Of a DNA stretch of 64,000 nucleotides, positions 52,206 through 59,417 are shown piece after piece (position 1 is the stretch's first letter; every line of letters begins with the position of its first letter). The notes under the pieces were generated by a model. The model made no database searches. It was not told where the DNA came from and saw nothing but the letters and a program-made list of their open reading frames with translations. Source of the stretch: an uncultured Eubacterium sp. (lineage in GTDB: Bacteria > Bacillota > Clostridia > Lachnospirales > Lachnospiraceae); NCBI GenBank assembly GCA_910578975.1, contig CAJTRZ010000011.1, positions 8,252-72,251 on the forward strand, read 5' to 3'. Both the position numbers and the translations under genes were made by a program.

Positions 52206-52321
52206 TCTTCTACGATTTATATAATATTGTTTCTTGATATTTATTGATTAGATATGTCCGATTCATTCGTTGCACGTTCTATTATGTCCCGCATATTATA
52301 AAGAAAAAAAGGAGAGTTTTT

Positions 52322-52558
52322 ATGTCGAATAATTTTAGATGCTCATGCAATGGCAGTCATCAAAGCCATAATCATGCCCCTTGTCACACATGCCACAACG
52401 ACCACCATCACGGCAATGATTGGCGTGATGAGCGTAGAGATGACTGGCGTGACGAGCGTAGAGATGACTGGCGTGACGAACAGAGAGATGATAGACACCA
52501 TGAACACAGGAATAACAGATGCAACTGGTGCAATAATAATTTCTGGCCTTGGAGATAA
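52322..52558 (+). CDS. Small His/Cys-rich protein with three DWRDE(R/Q)RD repeats
   Basis: Strong RBS AAAGGAGAG 7 nt upstream of the ATG, a putative promoter (TTGCAC, 18 nt, TATTAT) and a GC-rich terminator downstream. 78 aa: MSNNFRCSCNGSHQSHNHAPCHTCHNDHHHGN...RCNWCNNNFWPWR. Confidence 0.5.
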   Translation: MSNNFRCSCNGSHQSHNHAPCHTCHNDHHHGNDWRDERRDDWRDERRDDWRDEQRDDRHHEHRNNRCNWCNNNFWPWR

Positions 52559-54462: not shown

Positions 54463-54921
54463 CTAATAATCCTCAACTGCACTTTCCACTAATGTATCAC
54501 CTTCATATACAACTTTCAATGTGAAAAAATTATTCTCTTCTATTAATTTCTTTAAAAAGATCCTATCACCTTCCCAAATGTTTAATTTTAATATGTCCTT
54601 CTTATCTACCCATTTCAATTCTCCCTCATCACACTCACTTAACTCACCTGAAAACTCACTCGCAGTAAATAAATACATATATTCTGTCTTCCATTCATTT
54701 GATATAAATGTAATCACTGCCCGTAGCCTGTACTTTGTCAATGTAAGACCTGTCTCTTCAAATACTTCTCGTAAAAGACATTCTTCAGGTGTTTCGTCTT
54801 TTTCGAATTTTCCTCCTACCCCAATCCATTTCCCTTCATTTAAGTCATTTTCTTTCTTCGTTCTATGAAGCATTAAGTATTTATCATTCTTTTCTATATA
54901 ACAAAGCGTTGTATTAATCAT
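54463..54921 (-). CDS. NUDIX hydrolase (MutT-like)
   Basis: Nudix box GVGGKFEKDETPEECLLREVFEETGL. Start at the ATG at 54919-54921 with RBS AAAGGAA. Confidence 0.85.
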   Translation of the reverse strand: MINTTLCYIEKNDKYLMLHRTKKENDLNEGKWIGVGGKFEKDETPEECLLREVFEETGLTLTKYRLRAVITFISNEWKTEYMYLFTASEFSGELSECDEGELKWVDKKDILKLNIWEGDRIFLKKLIEENNFFTLKVVYEGDTLVESAVEDY

Positions 54922-54979: not shown

Positions 54980-55018
54980 AATAAAAGCATGATGCATATA
55001 AACATCATGCTTTTATAA
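54980..55018 (-). terminator. Second of two tandem terminators downstream of the LytTR-box promoter
   Basis: 11-bp stem aaagcatgatg / catcatgcttt, followed on the minus strand by TTTTATTT. Confidence 0.7.
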
Positions 55019-55031
55019 AAACTCTTAACTT

Positions 55032-55068
55032 CAACAAAAGCACTAGTCCAAACAGCCTAGTGCTTTCA
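55032..55068 (-). terminator. First tandem terminator downstream of the LytTR-box promoter
   Basis: Stem agcactag / ctagtgct, followed on the minus strand by TTTTGTTG. Confidence 0.65.
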
Positions 55069-55160
55069 TCGCCCCCCATTTTTCCATATCAATTTTTCTT
55101 TTCATTATGATATGGTAATTATAAAATCCATACTCCTTTGAATAGTAATTTAACTATCCA
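55032..55160 (-). ncRNA. Candidate LytTR-activated short transcript (regulatory RNA and/or micropeptide mRNA)
   Basis: Bounded by a predicted promoter (boxes, TTGACT, 17 nt, TATTTT) and a terminator. Contains only tiny ORFs: an 8-aa ORF MDFIITIS whose AGGAG lies 1 nt from the ATG, and a 20-aa ORF MKRKIDMEKWGAMKALGCLD (55043..55105) with no SD. Confidence 0.3.
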
Positions 55161-55165
55161 CCCCT

Positions 55166-55237
55166 AAAATAATAATATTCAACAAATGAGTCAATAGAAT
55201 CTGCACGAACGATAGTGATTTTTGCATAAACGATAGT
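55166..55237 (-). promoter_or_regulatory. LytTR-type operator (two 9-bp direct repeats 21 bp apart) plus putative -35/-10, copy 1
   Basis: AACGATAGT at 55208-55216 and 55229-55237 (minus strand: ACTATCGTTTATGCA / ACTATCGTTCGTGCA). -35 TTGACT (55189-55194) and -10 TATTTT (55166-55171) on the minus strand. Confidence 0.6.
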
Positions 55238-55301
55238 ATTTTTTATAGTACCAGTGTGTTATTATGTAATTTTACTTCTTATTAACATATTTAATTCCAA
55301 T

Positions 55302-55325
55302 AAAAAAAGCCACTTTCGTGACTCT
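55302..55325 (-). terminator. Terminator after the kinase/regulator operon
   Basis: Minus strand: AGUCAC-GAAA-GUGGCU followed by UUUUUUU, immediately after the stop at 55326. Confidence 0.6.
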
Positions 55326-56026
55326 TTATGCATTTCCGCAATCATATATTCTCTTTAAATATACTCTTTTAAATTCCCAAAGTTTTCTCTGTGCAACATC
55401 CAAGTCACTTCCATCTTTCATGTACACAATCAAATTCTCTAACCTCTCAACCTCATCTAAGTTCACAATAAAAGACTTGTGACACCTGAAAAACCATTTA
55501 TCACACAACTCCTTTTCAAACTCTTTCATGCTGGTATTACACCTTTTATTTCATGCTTCATGTGAACAATGACATTGTGACTGGCTCCTTCCACATAACT
55601 AATATCTTTTAATGTAATTTCCCGTACTCCTTCTCCAACAATATTTACTTTAATTCTCTTATTTCTTTCTAAAAGAGTTTCTGCAGATTCTAATGCTTCG
55701 ATGATTAACTCTTCCATCCTTTCTTTGTTAATATATCTAAAAGCATTTACTAAATATCCTCTATCACACATTTCAGTATGTGTTGTAAGAATCATGTATA
55801 CACTTTCCGGATATCTCTTCCTTGCCTTCTTTATCGTTTCAAAGCCATCTATGCCATTCATCTCTATATCAATAAAAGAGATATCGTACTCGATTTCACT
55901 TTCCAGATACTCTTCACCACTTTCATAAAAGTCTATATTAATAATCTCATTTCTATAATAATTTATAATACAACTCTTTGCCCTGTCGCGATATAACTGT
56001 AAATCATCTACTACTGCAATTTTCAA
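55326..56026 (-). pseudogene. LytTR-family response regulator interrupted by a frameshift (ORFs 55526..56026 and 55326..55529)
   Basis: The upstream ORF holds the receiver domain (VVDD, FIDIEMNG) plus the first half of the LytTR domain (ITLKDISYVEG..VIVHMKHEIKG). The downstream ORF holds the second half (FFRCHKSFIVNLDEV). The two frames join between 55530 and 55552. Confidence 0.75.
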
Positions 56027-57321
56027 CTCTCTACCTCCTGATTCGCGAGCATCACCGTAACAGAGTAAATGTTTTTCTCAATGTCAATATCTATCATTCC
56101 ATGATTCCGCATGACAGCATCTTTTATATTTTCTACTCCGAATCCATGATACTCTATATCTTTTTTCGTCGTTATGATTTTACTATGACGGAATTGCCCT
56201 TCGTCTTTGAATGTATTCTTTGTTATAATGATAATACTTTCTTTTGTATATCTACATTCCATAGAAATTCTTTTTTCTACAGACTTTTCTGCAGCCTCTA
56301 ATGCGTTGCTTAATAGATTAGAGAATATCGTACATAAATCATATGCTGAAATCTTACAGATTTTCGGAAACATTCCTTTTATCTCAATGTTAATGCCTTT
56401 TTGTGCGGCCTCAGAATAGTATTTATTCACAATCGCATCTACGATACCATTATTTACTGTAATAACATTTCCAAAACTGTCTATTTTAATATTGATATCT
56501 TTCATGTATTCATCAAAGTTCGAATACATATCATTCTTTGCCATACTAGACAAAACCTGCATATGACTTTTAATATCATGCCGAAACTTCTTTGTATCTT
56601 TTTCTCTCTGTTCCAAATATTTGTAATGCTTTATTTGTTCATTCAAATATTTCCCTGTCATTTCTTCTTTTTCCTTGTATGTATCTCTAGAAATAATTAA
56701 TAAAATAACAGCAGCTAACTGTATGAAAATTCCAATGATTGTAATTAAAAATAAACTTAAGAATAATACTTTGTGACTTCCTTTATAATCATCGACCAAT
56801 ATTGTTCCTAAACTCATAATAACAAAGGCATCTGCTGTAGCAAGAATTGTAAATAAAAATAATTTTAAAAATCCAATATTTTTAATTCCAATCTTATATT
56901 TTCTTTTATATATTTGACCTATCAATAACATGAAAAGCAATGAAACGGCTGAAGCCGTCAATTCTCCCACCCGTTCATTAGAATATTTTAACATATCAAA
57001 TAATACAGTTACCATTTCCGTGAACAACAAATCCAGCATTGACGTCAAAAATATTATCCAAATACCAGAAATAATTAATTCATATATTTTCTCATCATAA
57101 ATCAAGCAGATATATAAACATAATGCCATGAAAAAAGAAGCAAATGTAATCATGTCATTATTATAAATATGCAATAACAATGAGAAAATAAGCATTACAA
57201 CTGTAGAAACAACAGTTATATATTTTCTTTTTCTCTTTCGAAACATAAATATTAAATCACATAAAATAATAATTTTTAACAAATGCAATGCATCTGTTAA
57301 TACATACATAATCCGCTCCAT
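56023..57321 (-). CDS. AgrC-like (HPK10-type) membrane sensor histidine kinase
   Basis: About 6 N-terminal TM segments, H-box FRHDIKSH, N-box SNLLSNALEA, G-box HGFGVENI. Start MERIMYV with RBS GGAGGAA. Overlaps the regulator gene by 4 nt. Confidence 0.85.
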   Translation of the reverse strand: MERIMYVLTDALHLLKIIILCDLIFMFRKRKRKYITVVSTVVMLIFSLLLHIYNNDMITFASFFMALCLYICLIYDEKIYELIISGIWIIFLTSMLDLLFTEMVTVLFDMLKYSNERVGELTASAVSLLFMLLIGQIYKRKYKIGIKNIGFLKLFLFTILATADAFVIMSLGTILVDDYKGSHKVLFLSLFLITIIGIFIQLAAVILLIISRDTYKEKEEMTGKYLNEQIKHYKYLEQREKDTKKFRHDIKSHMQVLSSMAKNDMYSNFDEYMKDINIKIDSFGNVITVNNGIVDAIVNKYYSEAAQKGINIEIKGMFPKICKISAYDLCTIFSNLLSNALEAAEKSVEKRISMECRYTKESIIIITKNTFKDEGQFRHSKIITTKKDIEYHGFGVENIKDAVMRNHGMIDIDIEKNIYSVTVMLANQEVES

Positions 57322-57502
57322 AAAATTCCTCCGTAATCCCAACTATTAATATAATTATAACAAAAAATTGGGAAATACGGAAGAATTTAACATTTTACTT
57401 GCTTTATCGACAACTAAAACCAACGTCTCATAAAGTGCCAAAAACTATTAAACAACACATAATCCTTTCCGTATATACTTATGTATTGTCCGGACAAGGA
57501 TT

Positions 57503-57573
57503 AGCATAATTTATTTAATTTTTTTGTAAATACAATCTGCACGAACGATAGTGATTTCTGCGTAAACGATAGT
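57503..57573 (-). promoter_or_regulatory. LytTR-type operator plus putative -35/-10, copy 2 (upstream of the kinase operon)
   Basis: AACGATAGT at 57544-57552 and 57565-57573. The block 57535-57576 differs from 55199-55240 at 2 positions across the first 40 bp (through the second AACGATAGT box and the following A); the last 2 bp also differ. -35 TTTACA (57525-57530) and -10 TATGCT (57503-57508) on the minus strand, at the same offset as in copy 1. Confidence 0.6.
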
Positions 57574-57742: not shown

Positions 57743-58789
57743 TTATAAACATTTTCGAAATGCAGTCGGCAATGGTACTGTGTTGTTCAACTCTTCTTTT
57801 GAAACCCATTTAAAAGAATCATTCATTTCTTTGCAGACAATATGGTAACAGTTCATTTGCCATTCCAAATGCGTAAAAATATGTTTTGTGTTTTTATGCT
57901 TCTCTATCTGAATTATTTCAATCCCCTGTTGTTCTAACCACTTACCAATCTCTTCTTCAGTCAACTTCCTATCTATATTAGGAAATTCCCATAAACCGGC
58001 TAAAAGCCCCTGTTCGCCTCTTTGCCTTACAGCAATTTTGTCTCCCGCCGATATAATAAGTACTGTTTTATTTATCTTTTTGCGCTGTGGTTTCATTTGT
58101 TTTACAGGATACTTGTGCCATGTATTATTTTTGTATGCACTACATCCACTCTTCAATGGGCACTCTTCACATTTTGGTTCTCCGTTTGGAACACAGACAG
58201 TAGCTCCTAGTTCCATTAAACTTTGTGTAAATTCACTGCAATAACCTATTGGGTAAATCTCTTCCAGCCTTTCACCAATCTGTTTCTTAAATTTTTCATT
58301 TTTAATATCTGCATTATTTTCTTCTAATCTGGTTATTACACGAAGCACATTTCCATCGACTGCGGAACAAGGCTGTCCAAATGCAATTGAACTGATAGCC
58401 CCTGCTGTATATTTTCCAATCCCCGGAAGTTTCAATATCTCCGAATACTCCCCAGGAAACTTTCCTCTGTACTGTTCACACATAACCTCTGCCGCTTTTT
58501 TTAGATTTCTTGCCCGAGAGTAATATCCTAATCCTTCCCACAATTTCATAACCTTTTCTTCTGGTGCCTCTGCCAGTGTTGCAATATTCGGGAAGTTCTC
58601 CATAAATCTCTGATAATAAGATATTACTGCCTCAACTCTGGTCTGCTGCAACATTATTTCTGAAACCCATACACGATATGGATCACTGTTTTCTCTCCAT
58701 GGAAGTACCCTTGCCTGCTCCTCGTACCATTGAAGCAATGGATCTACGATCCACTGTAGTGATTTTTTATCTTCCTTTATATTTAACAT
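57743..58789 (-). CDS. mutY: A/G-specific adenine DNA glycosylase
   Basis: LPWR..DPYRVWVSEIMLQQT, HhH-GPD (LPGIGKYTAGAI), 4Fe-4S Cys cluster (C..C..C..C) and a C-terminal NUDIX-like domain. The start is uncertain (58789 to 58894); 58789 avoids overlap with the upstream gene. Confidence 0.88.
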   Translation of the reverse strand: MLNIKEDKKSLQWIVDPLLQWYEEQARVLPWRENSDPYRVWVSEIMLQQTRVEAVISYYQRFMENFPNIATLAEAPEEKVMKLWEGLGYYSRARNLKKAAEVMCEQYRGKFPGEYSEILKLPGIGKYTAGAISSIAFGQPCSAVDGNVLRVITRLEENNADIKNEKFKKQIGERLEEIYPIGYCSEFTQSLMELGATVCVPNGEPKCEECPLKSGCSAYKNNTWHKYPVKQMKPQRKKINKTVLIISAGDKIAVRQRGEQGLLAGLWEFPNIDRKLTEEEIGKWLEQQGIEIIQIEKHKNTKHIFTHLEWQMNCYHIVCKEMNDSFKWVSKEELNNTVPLPTAFRKCL

Positions 58790-58796
58790 ATCTTTA

Positions 58797-59417
58797 TCAT
58801 TCATATCTTTTTTCATACTTTCTCTTTGCTTCTTCCGTATATTTTTTAATAAATTCTGTTTTTGCATTTGTATAACCATCTCGATTATGCTCATACTTCT
58901 TCCATAGCTTCAATTTCAACTCTTCATACTGTCTTGCTACATCGTAATATTCTTTTAAATAATCTCTAAAATATAATTCATCATTATCTCCTGCATATCT
59001 CAAATGTAGATGAAACACTCTCTCTGCAAAACCATTTTCAGTATAACCTTTATTAAAAGACATTCTATTCGTAGTCTGACTCATACAAATATAGTCATTA
59101 CAAACTAATTGTTTCTTTATTTCTTCCATATCGTATACTTCCGGTATTTCCACCAAAATATCAATAATAGGTTTTGCCCAAATTGTATCAACAGCAGTAC
59201 TTCCAATATGGCTGATTTTGTACGTTATATCTGATTTTAATATCTTTTCTATATTGTCTTTCTCATCACAAAACCATTTTTTCCAGTAGACCTGATGCTC
59301 TGTAAGAGATATTGGAAAAAGTTCCCACAGTTCCTTCATACTCATTTCTGATAAACCTTTTCTTTTCTCAGAACAAACTCTCTTCTCCATTTCATCATAT
59401 TTTTTTATGTATCCCAC
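58797..59417 (-). CDS. GrpB/UPF0157 family protein
   Basis: ISHIGSTAV..AKPIIDILV and HLHL motifs. The track start is a GTG; the ATG at 59345 (MSMKEL) is more plausible. Confidence 0.75.
   Translation of the reverse strand: MGYIKKYDEMEKRVCSEKRKGLSEMSMKELWELFPISLTEHQVYWKKWFCDEKDNIEKILKSDITYKISHIGSTAVDTIWAKPIIDILVEIPEVYDMEEIKKQLVCNDYICMSQTTNRMSFNKGYTENGFAERVFHLHLRYAGDNDELYFRDYLKEYYDVARQYEELKLKLWKKYEHNRDGYTNAKTEFIKKYTEEAKRKYEKRYE

Follow-up and report, generated by a model that had tools for sequence, protein, structure and literature searches.

The window (the whole stretch of DNA analysed, 64 kb) carries on its minus strand an AgrC-like kinase, a response regulator with a LytTR domain and, downstream of these, a short interval in which a LytTR-type operator, a promoter, a structured RNA module and two terminators precede a NUDIX hydrolase gene. 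The features are listed here in the order in which they are read on the minus strand.

57743-58894, minus strand: MutY-like glycosylase, first gene of the locus
57538-57573, minus strand: operator copy A, LytTR-type, found by exact pattern search
57530-57503, minus strand: predicted promoter A, in the same register to operator A as promoter B to operator B
56023-57321, minus strand: AgrC-like membrane histidine kinase with a HATPase_c_5 domain (Pfam)
55326-56026, minus strand: response regulator with receiver and LytTR domains (Pfam), split into ORFs of 166 aa and 67 aa
about 55300-55325, minus strand: the response regulator's own terminator
55202-55237, minus strand: operator copy B, LytTR-type, two ACTATCGTTnnnGCA direct repeats with 9-nt cores and a 12-nt spacer
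55166-55194, minus strand: predicted promoter B, -35 TTGACT (55194-55189), 17-nt spacer, -10 TATTTT (55171-55166)
55025-55162, minus strand: conserved RNA module of ~135 nt, comprising P1, a linker, P2 and the P3 terminator (covariance model R1, 133 bits)
55139-55160, minus strand: P1 hairpin at the 5' end of the RNA, GGAUAGU...ACUAUUC in the window
55084-55115, minus strand: P2 hairpin, CCAUAUCA...UGAUAUGG, predicted by single-copy folds
55032-55071, minus strand: P3, which is terminator 1, CGAUGAAAGCACUAG...CUAGUGCUUUUGUUG (fold and 14-copy alignment)
54981-55016, minus strand: terminator 2, from the terminator scan, present in the window's clade only
54463-54921 (ATG at 54921), minus strand: NUDIX hydrolase gene (Pfam), the downstream neighbour and not part of the module
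downstream of NUDIX: maltose-acetyltransferase-like gene

Based on Pfam, the kinase/regulator pair has MutY, NUDIX and acetyltransferases as neighbours in the window, and MutY and NUDIX lie on either side of the cassette as they would if it were an insertion between them. No AgrB-type processing enzyme is found among the genes adjoining the pair in the window; AgrB was seen only beside a more distant system (L031, kinase 48% identical). The mechanical NUDIX ORF reaches up to 55008. For comparison with relatives, 691 kinase homologues were collected at E ≤ 1e-10; the contigs compared carry homologues that are 99% to 46% identical to the window's kinase, and operators were scanned for in one genome per species. 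The named relatives are mouse-gut and rabbit-gut ‘Eubacterium sp.’, Eubacteriaceae and Lachnospiraceae genome bins, and their loci are designated by L numbers.

The response regulator, for which the closest solved structures are ComE and AgrA, is split near 55545 by a 1-nt deletion (CATGAAA-TAAAAGG compared to CATGGAATTAAAAGG in L029), which yields a receiver-only ORF and a partial LytTR ORF. Since all relatives, the one with a 99% identical kinase included, have an uninterrupted regulator gene (233 aa), the frameshift is either very recent or an assembly error. A genuine frameshift, as opposed to an assembly error, may leave promoter B, and promoter A as well, silent in this genome. The deletion adjoins an A-run, and the first-pass annotation of this DNA overlooked the frameshift.

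Operators and promoters of the locus

The 36-nt operator, two direct repeats of ACTATCGTTnnnGCA at a period of 21 nt, has exactly two matches in the 64 kb, where none is expected. Its core, ACTATCGTT twice with a 12-nt spacer, fits the rule for LytTR sites, in which two direct repeats of 9-11 nt are separated by a spacer of 11-13 nt (PMC4847170). At both copies in the window and in all relatives the -35 element starts 7 nt past the proximal repeat unit, and operator A stands upstream of the kinase promoter in a register identical to that of operator B. The -35 and -10 hexamers alone occur at the frequency expected by chance in the window (27 sites versus 24.3 expected); thus, promoter B is credible because of its fixed register with the operator, and not because of the hexamers by themselves. 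Operator B is 89-97% identical in relatives, and in their alignment TTGAC and the 7-nt distance to the operator are invariant, while the -10 element reads TAYnnT in every copy. The first-pass annotation had placed a promoter of the form TTGACT-17-TATTTT beside the second of two LytTR boxes, and it is present there, 7 nt past operator B, with a predicted transcription start at about 55159-55162. Promoter A is the predicted autoregulatory promoter of the kinase/regulator operon.

In the genome that carries L009, the exact operator pattern matched only the kinase promoter and the RNA promoter. A scan of JGI metagenomes for the operator returned chance matches in tandem repeats nearly exclusively, together with one real locus, L024, of the L017 lineage; the plasmid and phage collections searched gave no match. 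The element downstream of the regulator is best read as a member of the regulon that the neighbouring AgrC/AgrA-like two-component system controls.

Fold, covariation and coding potential of the RNA module

For the 191-nt transcript region a fold of -56.7 kcal/mol is predicted (z = -7.0), and none of 200 shuffles was as stable. A three-hairpin architecture recurs in nearly all copies folded individually. The last hairpin, P3, is terminator 1, in which 15 pairs are followed by UUUUGUUG (-18.5 kcal/mol); a simple terminator scan missed it because of its internal loop. The same scan found four terminator-like sites in the window, compared to 0.5 expected, and terminator 2 is among them. Terminator 2 is, as had been claimed, the stronger of the two in the window (-20.8 versus -18.5 kcal/mol), and the claims of a hairpin with a U-tract at terminator 1 and of both terminators lying upstream of the NUDIX start (ATG at 54921) held equally well. 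The two differ in their conservation. Across the window's clade the P3 energy stays between -18.5 and -21 kcal/mol, and P3 is fully paired in all five clade members. Terminator 2 has an energy of -22.5 kcal/mol in L029 and is degraded in L001, L009 and L012 (-9.5 to -10.5 kcal/mol), and no homologue of it was found in loci outside the window's clade; it looks like a lineage-specific add-on.

The stem of P1 is nearly invariant (GAAUAGU...ACUAUUC), with a loop of 4-10 nt across copies, and P3 has the consensus CGAYGAAAGCAyy...rrUGCUUUUGUUG. In a 14-copy alignment, all cells of the seven P1 pairs are paired (100%) and one pair is changed on both sides; 96.7% of cells are paired in the 15 pairs of P3, four of which are changed on both sides. 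Together, P1 and P3 are 97.7% paired with five pairs changed on both sides, whereas control columns with slid partners reach only 33-55% pairing, and no shuffle reached the covariation score of P1 and P3. These counts cover P1 and P3, as the P2 region was poorly aligned by MAFFT. The P2 arms read YYCAUAUCA and UGAUAUGGRR around a terminal insert that ranges from 4 to about 45 nt across copies; P2 was predicted independently in most copies folded, and L025 has a compensatory change in it (CCACAU / AUGUGG). A conserved G-run lies in the P2 3' arm or directly 3' of P2. An alternative pairing of the linker AUGG with the CCAU of the P2 5' arm is possible, and does not involve P3.

With the covariance model R1, the window yields a single copy, and the loci compared yield none that had been overlooked. 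Searches of Rfam 15 with the window region and five related loci at permissive E-values gave no credible match, the only hits being mir-3012 (E = 3.7) and Atu_C9 (E = 0.74). Two readings of P1 as a DNA site were considered and dropped. As an operator for a dimeric repressor it would need arms at a fixed distance; the arm spacing varies between 4 and 10 nt, which suits an RNA loop but no fixed DNA site. As a third LytTR box it shares only ACTAT, and in the wrong phase (70 nt from the proximal box).

The interval also contains small ORFs. The first-pass annotation described ORFs of 8 and 20 aa and set the maximum at 20 codons; the two ORFs are as described, but a 24-aa ORF at 55005-55079 exceeds that maximum. 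In L001, L009 and L012 (kinases about 93% identical), loss of one G from the G-run shifts the frame of the 20-aa ORF MKRKIDMEKWGAMKALGCLD and leaves 15 or 12 aa; in the more distant copies L003, L004, L017 and L018 the ORF is absent, with no start codon. The 8-aa ORF, MDFIITIS, has lost its ATG in the same three loci, and the AGGAG that precedes it has become AAGAG in the relative with a 99% identical kinase. Relatives have, in the corresponding place, peptides (MKINETIS, MEFSYIMYRIISAQ, MEFPPYHKVWRQ and others) unrelated in length and sequence, and across the copies compared no ORF is conserved in frame, length or Shine-Dalgarno sequence (SD). From these comparisons, the module is predicted to be a conserved structured RNA and not a peptide, in agreement with the earlier description of a short, structured and essentially non-coding transcript from a dedicated promoter.

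Conservation and downstream genes in relatives

The interval had been proposed as the output of its kinase/regulator operon, and the stretch from operator B through terminator 1 is indeed found downstream of the regulator in every examined relative with a kinase 62-99% identical to that of the window. Leader identity to the window is 95% in L001, 67% in L003 and 60% in L004; the -35/-10 spacer and the flank after P3 are 83-90%, 42-43% and 37-52% identical in the same three loci. Based on these figures, the RNA stretch is more constrained than those flanks and less constrained than the operator.

In several relatives the module stands in front of a secreted-protease operon. In L003/L006/L030, L004, L033 and L015b (the second locus of a rabbit-gut genome), the leader lies 60-110 nt upstream of a Big_2/S8 operon: at that distance after P3 comes the RBS of a 627-aa Big_2 protein, followed by an S8 subtilisin-like peptidase of about 835-880 aa and, in L030, by two LRR proteins. 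The relatives examined have no further operator in the stretch from P3 to the Big_2 start. The relatives with the Big_2/Peptidase_S8/LRR operon, or its remnant, behind the module have kinases 64-85% identical to the window's. The remnant is seen in L025/L027, in which the leader is followed by part of the Big_2 signal-peptide region ending in stop codons; the operon has been lost there. The subgroup L003, L025 and L033 has, between P3 and Big_2, a conserved block that contains a weak promoter-like match, and the operon may therefore not rely on read-through alone. In L008 and L013, LytTR-box promoters precede secreted-protein genes, and their short leaders keep only a P3-like terminator hairpin, which points to the terminator as the core cis element. 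The L030 contig ends ahead of any NUDIX gene.

No effector gene follows the module in three lineages: the window's clade (the window with L029, L001/L002, L009 and L012), the L017/L026 clade (kinase 62% identical) and L018, from the rabbit-gut genome that also carries L015b. Searches with tblastn found no match to Big_2 or S8 anywhere in the window. In L017/L026 NUDIX comes next after the module, and the NUDIX-proximal promoter region is homologous to that of the window. L015a likewise has no gene behind its module; it is a segmental duplicate that includes even the regulator's terminator. One genome carries three full module copies, two of them gene-less. That terminator 2 might be the old terminator of a deleted Big_2/S8 operon was considered and rejected, as it has no homology outside the window's clade.

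Leader, small RNA and other readings

The module is best read as an output RNA or a leader driven by the LytTR two-component system. The explanation that we favour, at about even confidence, is that it is a leader activated by the regulator, with a terminator that gates the read-through into effector genes, and that it is orphaned in the window. An intrinsic terminator is present between the promoter and the regulated ORF in relatives, and the window is without a regulated ORF. Because the terminator lies between a putatively regulator-dependent promoter and an effector operon, we infer an attenuating leader, and because the RNA stands upstream of the Big_2/S8 operon in relatives, it would be a 5' leader or attenuator no less than a small RNA gene.

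In the proposed mechanism, the phosphorylated LytTR regulator would bind the two 9-bp direct repeats upstream of the -35 element and activate transcription from about 55160. The nascent RNA would fold P1, which is probably a stabiliser of the 5' end, then P2 and then P3, and P3 with its U-tract would stop most transcripts at about 55025-55030, leaving an RNA of ~135 nt. In relatives, P3 would act as an attenuator, with effector genes expressed from read-through transcripts only; in the window's lineage, the module would be an orphan with the short RNA as its sole product, and terminator 2 would catch read-through before the unrelated NUDIX gene. Attenuators and riboswitches similarly place a structured leader and an intrinsic terminator between promoter and operon, and here the arrangement is conserved across paralogous operons. 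The module differs from them in that no antiterminator helix, leader peptide, known aptamer or known RNA-binding-protein site was identified by ORF comparison, folds and Rfam: neither the individual folds nor reading of the sequences revealed a structure in competition with P3, and the genes nearby include no candidate antiterminator protein or RNA-binding regulator.

The intact P1, P2 and P3 in gene-less copies of three lineages argue for a function independent of the downstream gene, and make it possible, with distinctly less confidence than for the leader, that the ~135-nt RNA is itself the functional output, a trans-acting small RNA made on activation of the two-component system, the role as leader being secondary, or both roles being held, where a gene follows. 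A discrete short transcript with its own promoter (B) and terminator (P3) is predicted; the module stands by itself in the window's clade, L018, L015a and L017/L026 (with NUDIX next), and lies upstream of Big_2/S8 in L003, L004, L006, L015b and L033. Two clades share the regulator-leader-NUDIX arrangement though their kinases are only 62% identical, and the RNA is duplicated in one genome, where two of the three full copies are gene-less. The restriction of the exact operator to the kinase promoter and the RNA in the L009 genome recalls FasA of S. pyogenes, which is proposed to act only at fasX (PMC12675982), and the virT-ccp layout of C. perfringens resembles L015a followed by L015b (PMC4963840). 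However, in most lineages sampled the RNA lies 60-110 nt ahead of an operon that lacks its own operator, and no conserved single-stranded seed region is evident. Target prediction, which had been suggested for such an RNA, supported no target within the window: the best duplex with the 59 translation-initiation regions in the window has an energy of -25.6 kcal/mol, no better than shuffled leaders (mean -24.8). A complementarity between the G-run and the kinase leader (13/14) that we spotted by eye is not conserved in L003 or L004, and a role of the GGA motifs as a CsrA sponge was discarded because the linker GGAs are absent from L003, L025 and L033. The leader and the trans-acting small RNA are not mutually exclusive.

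We regard it as unlikely that the element is a relic that is decaying and no longer functions here, with the effector operon lost and the regulator frameshifted but the promoter and leader not yet eroded. The frameshifted regulator of the window and the degrading terminator 2 of sister strains would fit such a history, and the Big_2 remnant of L025/L027 shows that such deletions occur. However, every relative, the one with a 99% identical kinase among them, has an intact regulator; within the clade the leader is more strongly conserved (95%) than its flanks, and P3 is fully paired in 5/5 clade members.

Even less probable, in our estimation, is that the interval is a long regulated 5' UTR of the NUDIX gene. 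NUDIX is the next same-strand gene in both the window's clade and the L017/L026 clade, and in the latter P3 alone intervenes; in the window, however, two terminators intervene, and a promoter-like region (TTGCAT-17-TATGAT in L026) is conserved between P3 and NUDIX. Moreover, other lineages have the same leader before Big_2/S8 with NUDIX not nearby, and the cassette sits between MutY and NUDIX like an insertion.

The suggestion that the transcript encodes a micropeptide, MDFIITIS or MKRKIDMEKWGAMKALGCLD, possibly as the signal of the system, had in its favour the ATG-started ORFs, the AGGAG before the 8-aa ORF in the window and the overlap of the 8-aa stop with the 20-aa start (TAATG), but we reject it as highly improbable because both ORFs are broken even in the close relatives L001, L009 and L012 (with the longer one absent in L003, L004, L017 and L018), the SD stands 1 nt before the ATG and is changed to AAGAG in the relative with a 99% identical kinase, unrelated peptides occupy the equivalent position in relatives and the locus is without AgrB.

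The closest known systems include four LytTR-type regulons. FasX is always a stand-alone gene and has known mRNA targets; the RNA here differs in that it also leads an effector operon in relatives. The fasBCAX system is otherwise similar, with one or more kinases and a LytTR/ComE-like regulator followed by a same-strand small RNA, and with a direct-repeat site upstream of the -35 element (PMC12675982). FasX is the main effector of that system (PMC12675982), and the gene-less copies here share its layout. Neither sequence nor Rfam comparison links the module itself to a known RNA family.

The gelE/sprE proteases are a metalloprotease and a V8-like serine protease, and the fsr locus encodes its own AgrB/AgrD-type signal genes; unlike these, the proteins here are Big_2 and S8 subtilisin, which are unrelated to them, and the locus is without AgrB/AgrD-type signal genes. 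We know of no conserved terminator-containing leader described for gelE. The architecture of L003, L004, L006 and L033 is nevertheless the same as in E. faecalis, where the Agr-type fsr system is followed by the protease operon gelE/sprE with a second promoter that has a LytTR site (PMC5454873). The VirSR system differs from the one here in its box sequence and in its RNAs, which are unrelated. To our knowledge, the VirSR RNAs have not been described as terminator-gated leaders. In C. perfringens, this LytTR regulator acts at few promoters and controls several regulatory RNAs (VR-RNA, VirT and VirU), and virT lies just upstream of the co-regulated protease gene ccp (PMC4963840). The mixture of RNA genes and a protease gene in one regulon is common to both systems.

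In S. aureus agr, the regulator binds direct repeats at two promoters, one of them autoregulatory and the other (P3) leading to the RNAIII effector. The present locus is similar in having two regulator-site promoters, one predicted to be autoregulatory and one for an RNA. RNAIII is 514 nt long, is divergently transcribed and encodes delta-haemolysin, whereas the RNA here is ~135 nt, on the same strand, non-coding and without an Rfam match. Of the RNAIII-like effector proposed in the first-pass annotation, the structured RNA with its own promoter stands; the effector role is less well served, as the RNA is the leader of a Big_2/S8 operon in relatives and no trans target is supported.

We know of no description of a conserved terminator-bearing leader in LytTR regulons. 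Somewhat speculatively, and with less confidence than in either role alone, the module might represent a new class of regulatory RNA with a dual cis/trans role, dedicated to an AgrCA-like orphan system of gut Clostridia. If this were so, the cis terminator would be a second checkpoint on quorum-activated secreted-protease operons, which would need both promoter activation and an antitermination signal, and the terminated 135-nt product would be a trans effector small RNA; the trans role, if true, would account for the retention and duplication of gene-less copies.

Gut Clostridia carry many Agr-like kinase/regulator pairs that lack signal genes, and very little has been described of what these pairs control. 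For the system described here, the comparison supplies a defined operator and a small predicted regulon that consists of its own operon, the Big_2/S8/LRR secreted-protease operon, a few other secreted proteins and a conserved, unannotated RNA found with the regulated promoters. Should the RNA gate or mediate the output, commensal Clostridia would have a counterpart to the FasX, RNAIII or VR-RNA of pathogens, and the RNA would offer a handle on density-dependent protease secretion in the gut. In the window, the element is real and conserved, but is an orphan beside a frameshifted regulator.

Conserved elements upstream of the kinase

The transcript from promoter A, which precedes the AgrC-like kinase gene, begins with a stretch of DNA that is more highly conserved than the protein-coding gene itself, and we find a second conserved element between this stretch and the kinase start.

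Window ~57440-57500, minus strand: conserved start of the kinase leader, at the 5′ end of the promoter A transcript
Window ~57349-57360, minus strand: extended −10 element, TGTTATAAT, likewise conserved, ~30 nt before the kinase gene begins

The first ~55 nt of the kinase leader (CTTGTCCGGACAATACATAAGTATATACGGAAAGGATTATGTGTTGTTTAAT) are near-invariant in the window and in the related loci L001, L003, L004, L006, L017, L025-L028, L031 and L033. Indeed, this near-invariance persists in L028 and L031, despite a kinase only 46-48% identical to that of the window and differing LytTR boxes. In its predicted fold, the conserved stretch, which contains a palindrome, TTGTCCGGACAA, hides the SD-like sequence GGAAAGGA in a hairpin. 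Next comes a mini-ORF (MCCLIVFGTL*); this varies among relatives in both length and stop, and is reduced to MC* in L017. The extended −10 element reads TGATATAAT or TGCTATAAT in relatives, and is probably a second promoter, independent of the regulator, from which the kinase/regulator operon is expressed at a basal level.

Integrity of the response regulator

The response-regulator gene of the window carries a 1-nt deletion compared to all relatives (55526-55560, minus strand), which leaves two ORFs in place of the LytTR regulator: one of 166 aa with the receiver, and one of 67 aa with part of LytTR. In L029, in which the kinase is 99% identical, the regulator gene is whole and encodes 233 aa. 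Either the gene became a pseudogene very recently, or the deletion is an error of assembly beside an A-run.

Effector operon and regulon

Behind the leader RNA of promoter B, two related loci retain a remnant of Big_2, a gene of the secreted-protein effector operon, consisting of a ribosome-binding site and signal peptide (KMIVVLMIVLSTLCINSV...*; L025 7390-7500 and L027 7385-7495). The remnant shows directly that deletion of the effector operon can occur with promoter and leader retained.

Another promoter with the same operator (second unit ...ACGTA) is found in L010 (4450-4700), which shares a genome with L012. The same 7 nt separate this operator from the promoter, TTGAAA-17-TATAAT. There is no leader RNA here, and the gene downstream is lipoprotein-like and encodes 137 aa; this promoter and gene are probably another member of the regulon in the window's clade.

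Surroundings and origin of the cassette

In several clades, the kinase/regulator/leader cassette is bracketed by a MutY-like glycosylase (window 57743-58894) and a MutT-like NUDIX hydrolase (54463-54921), which gives it the look of an insertion separating two genes for oxidised-guanine repair. The MutY of L026 is fused to a GNAT domain. In L031 (6447-9311; kinase 48% identical), the homologous kinase/regulator pair adjoins another regulator and another kinase, behind which come AgrB and an AgrD-like ORF of 40 aa; this arrangement suggests that the orphan pair of the window has its origin in a full agr-type system, or listens to one.

One further ORF was also noted.

Window 52244-52558, plus strand: 104-aa ORF, from the ORF list only

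Its product has a high content of His, Cys, Asp and Arg, and contains DWRDERRD repeats (…CHTCHNDHHHGNDWRDERRDDWRDERRDDWRDEQRDD…).
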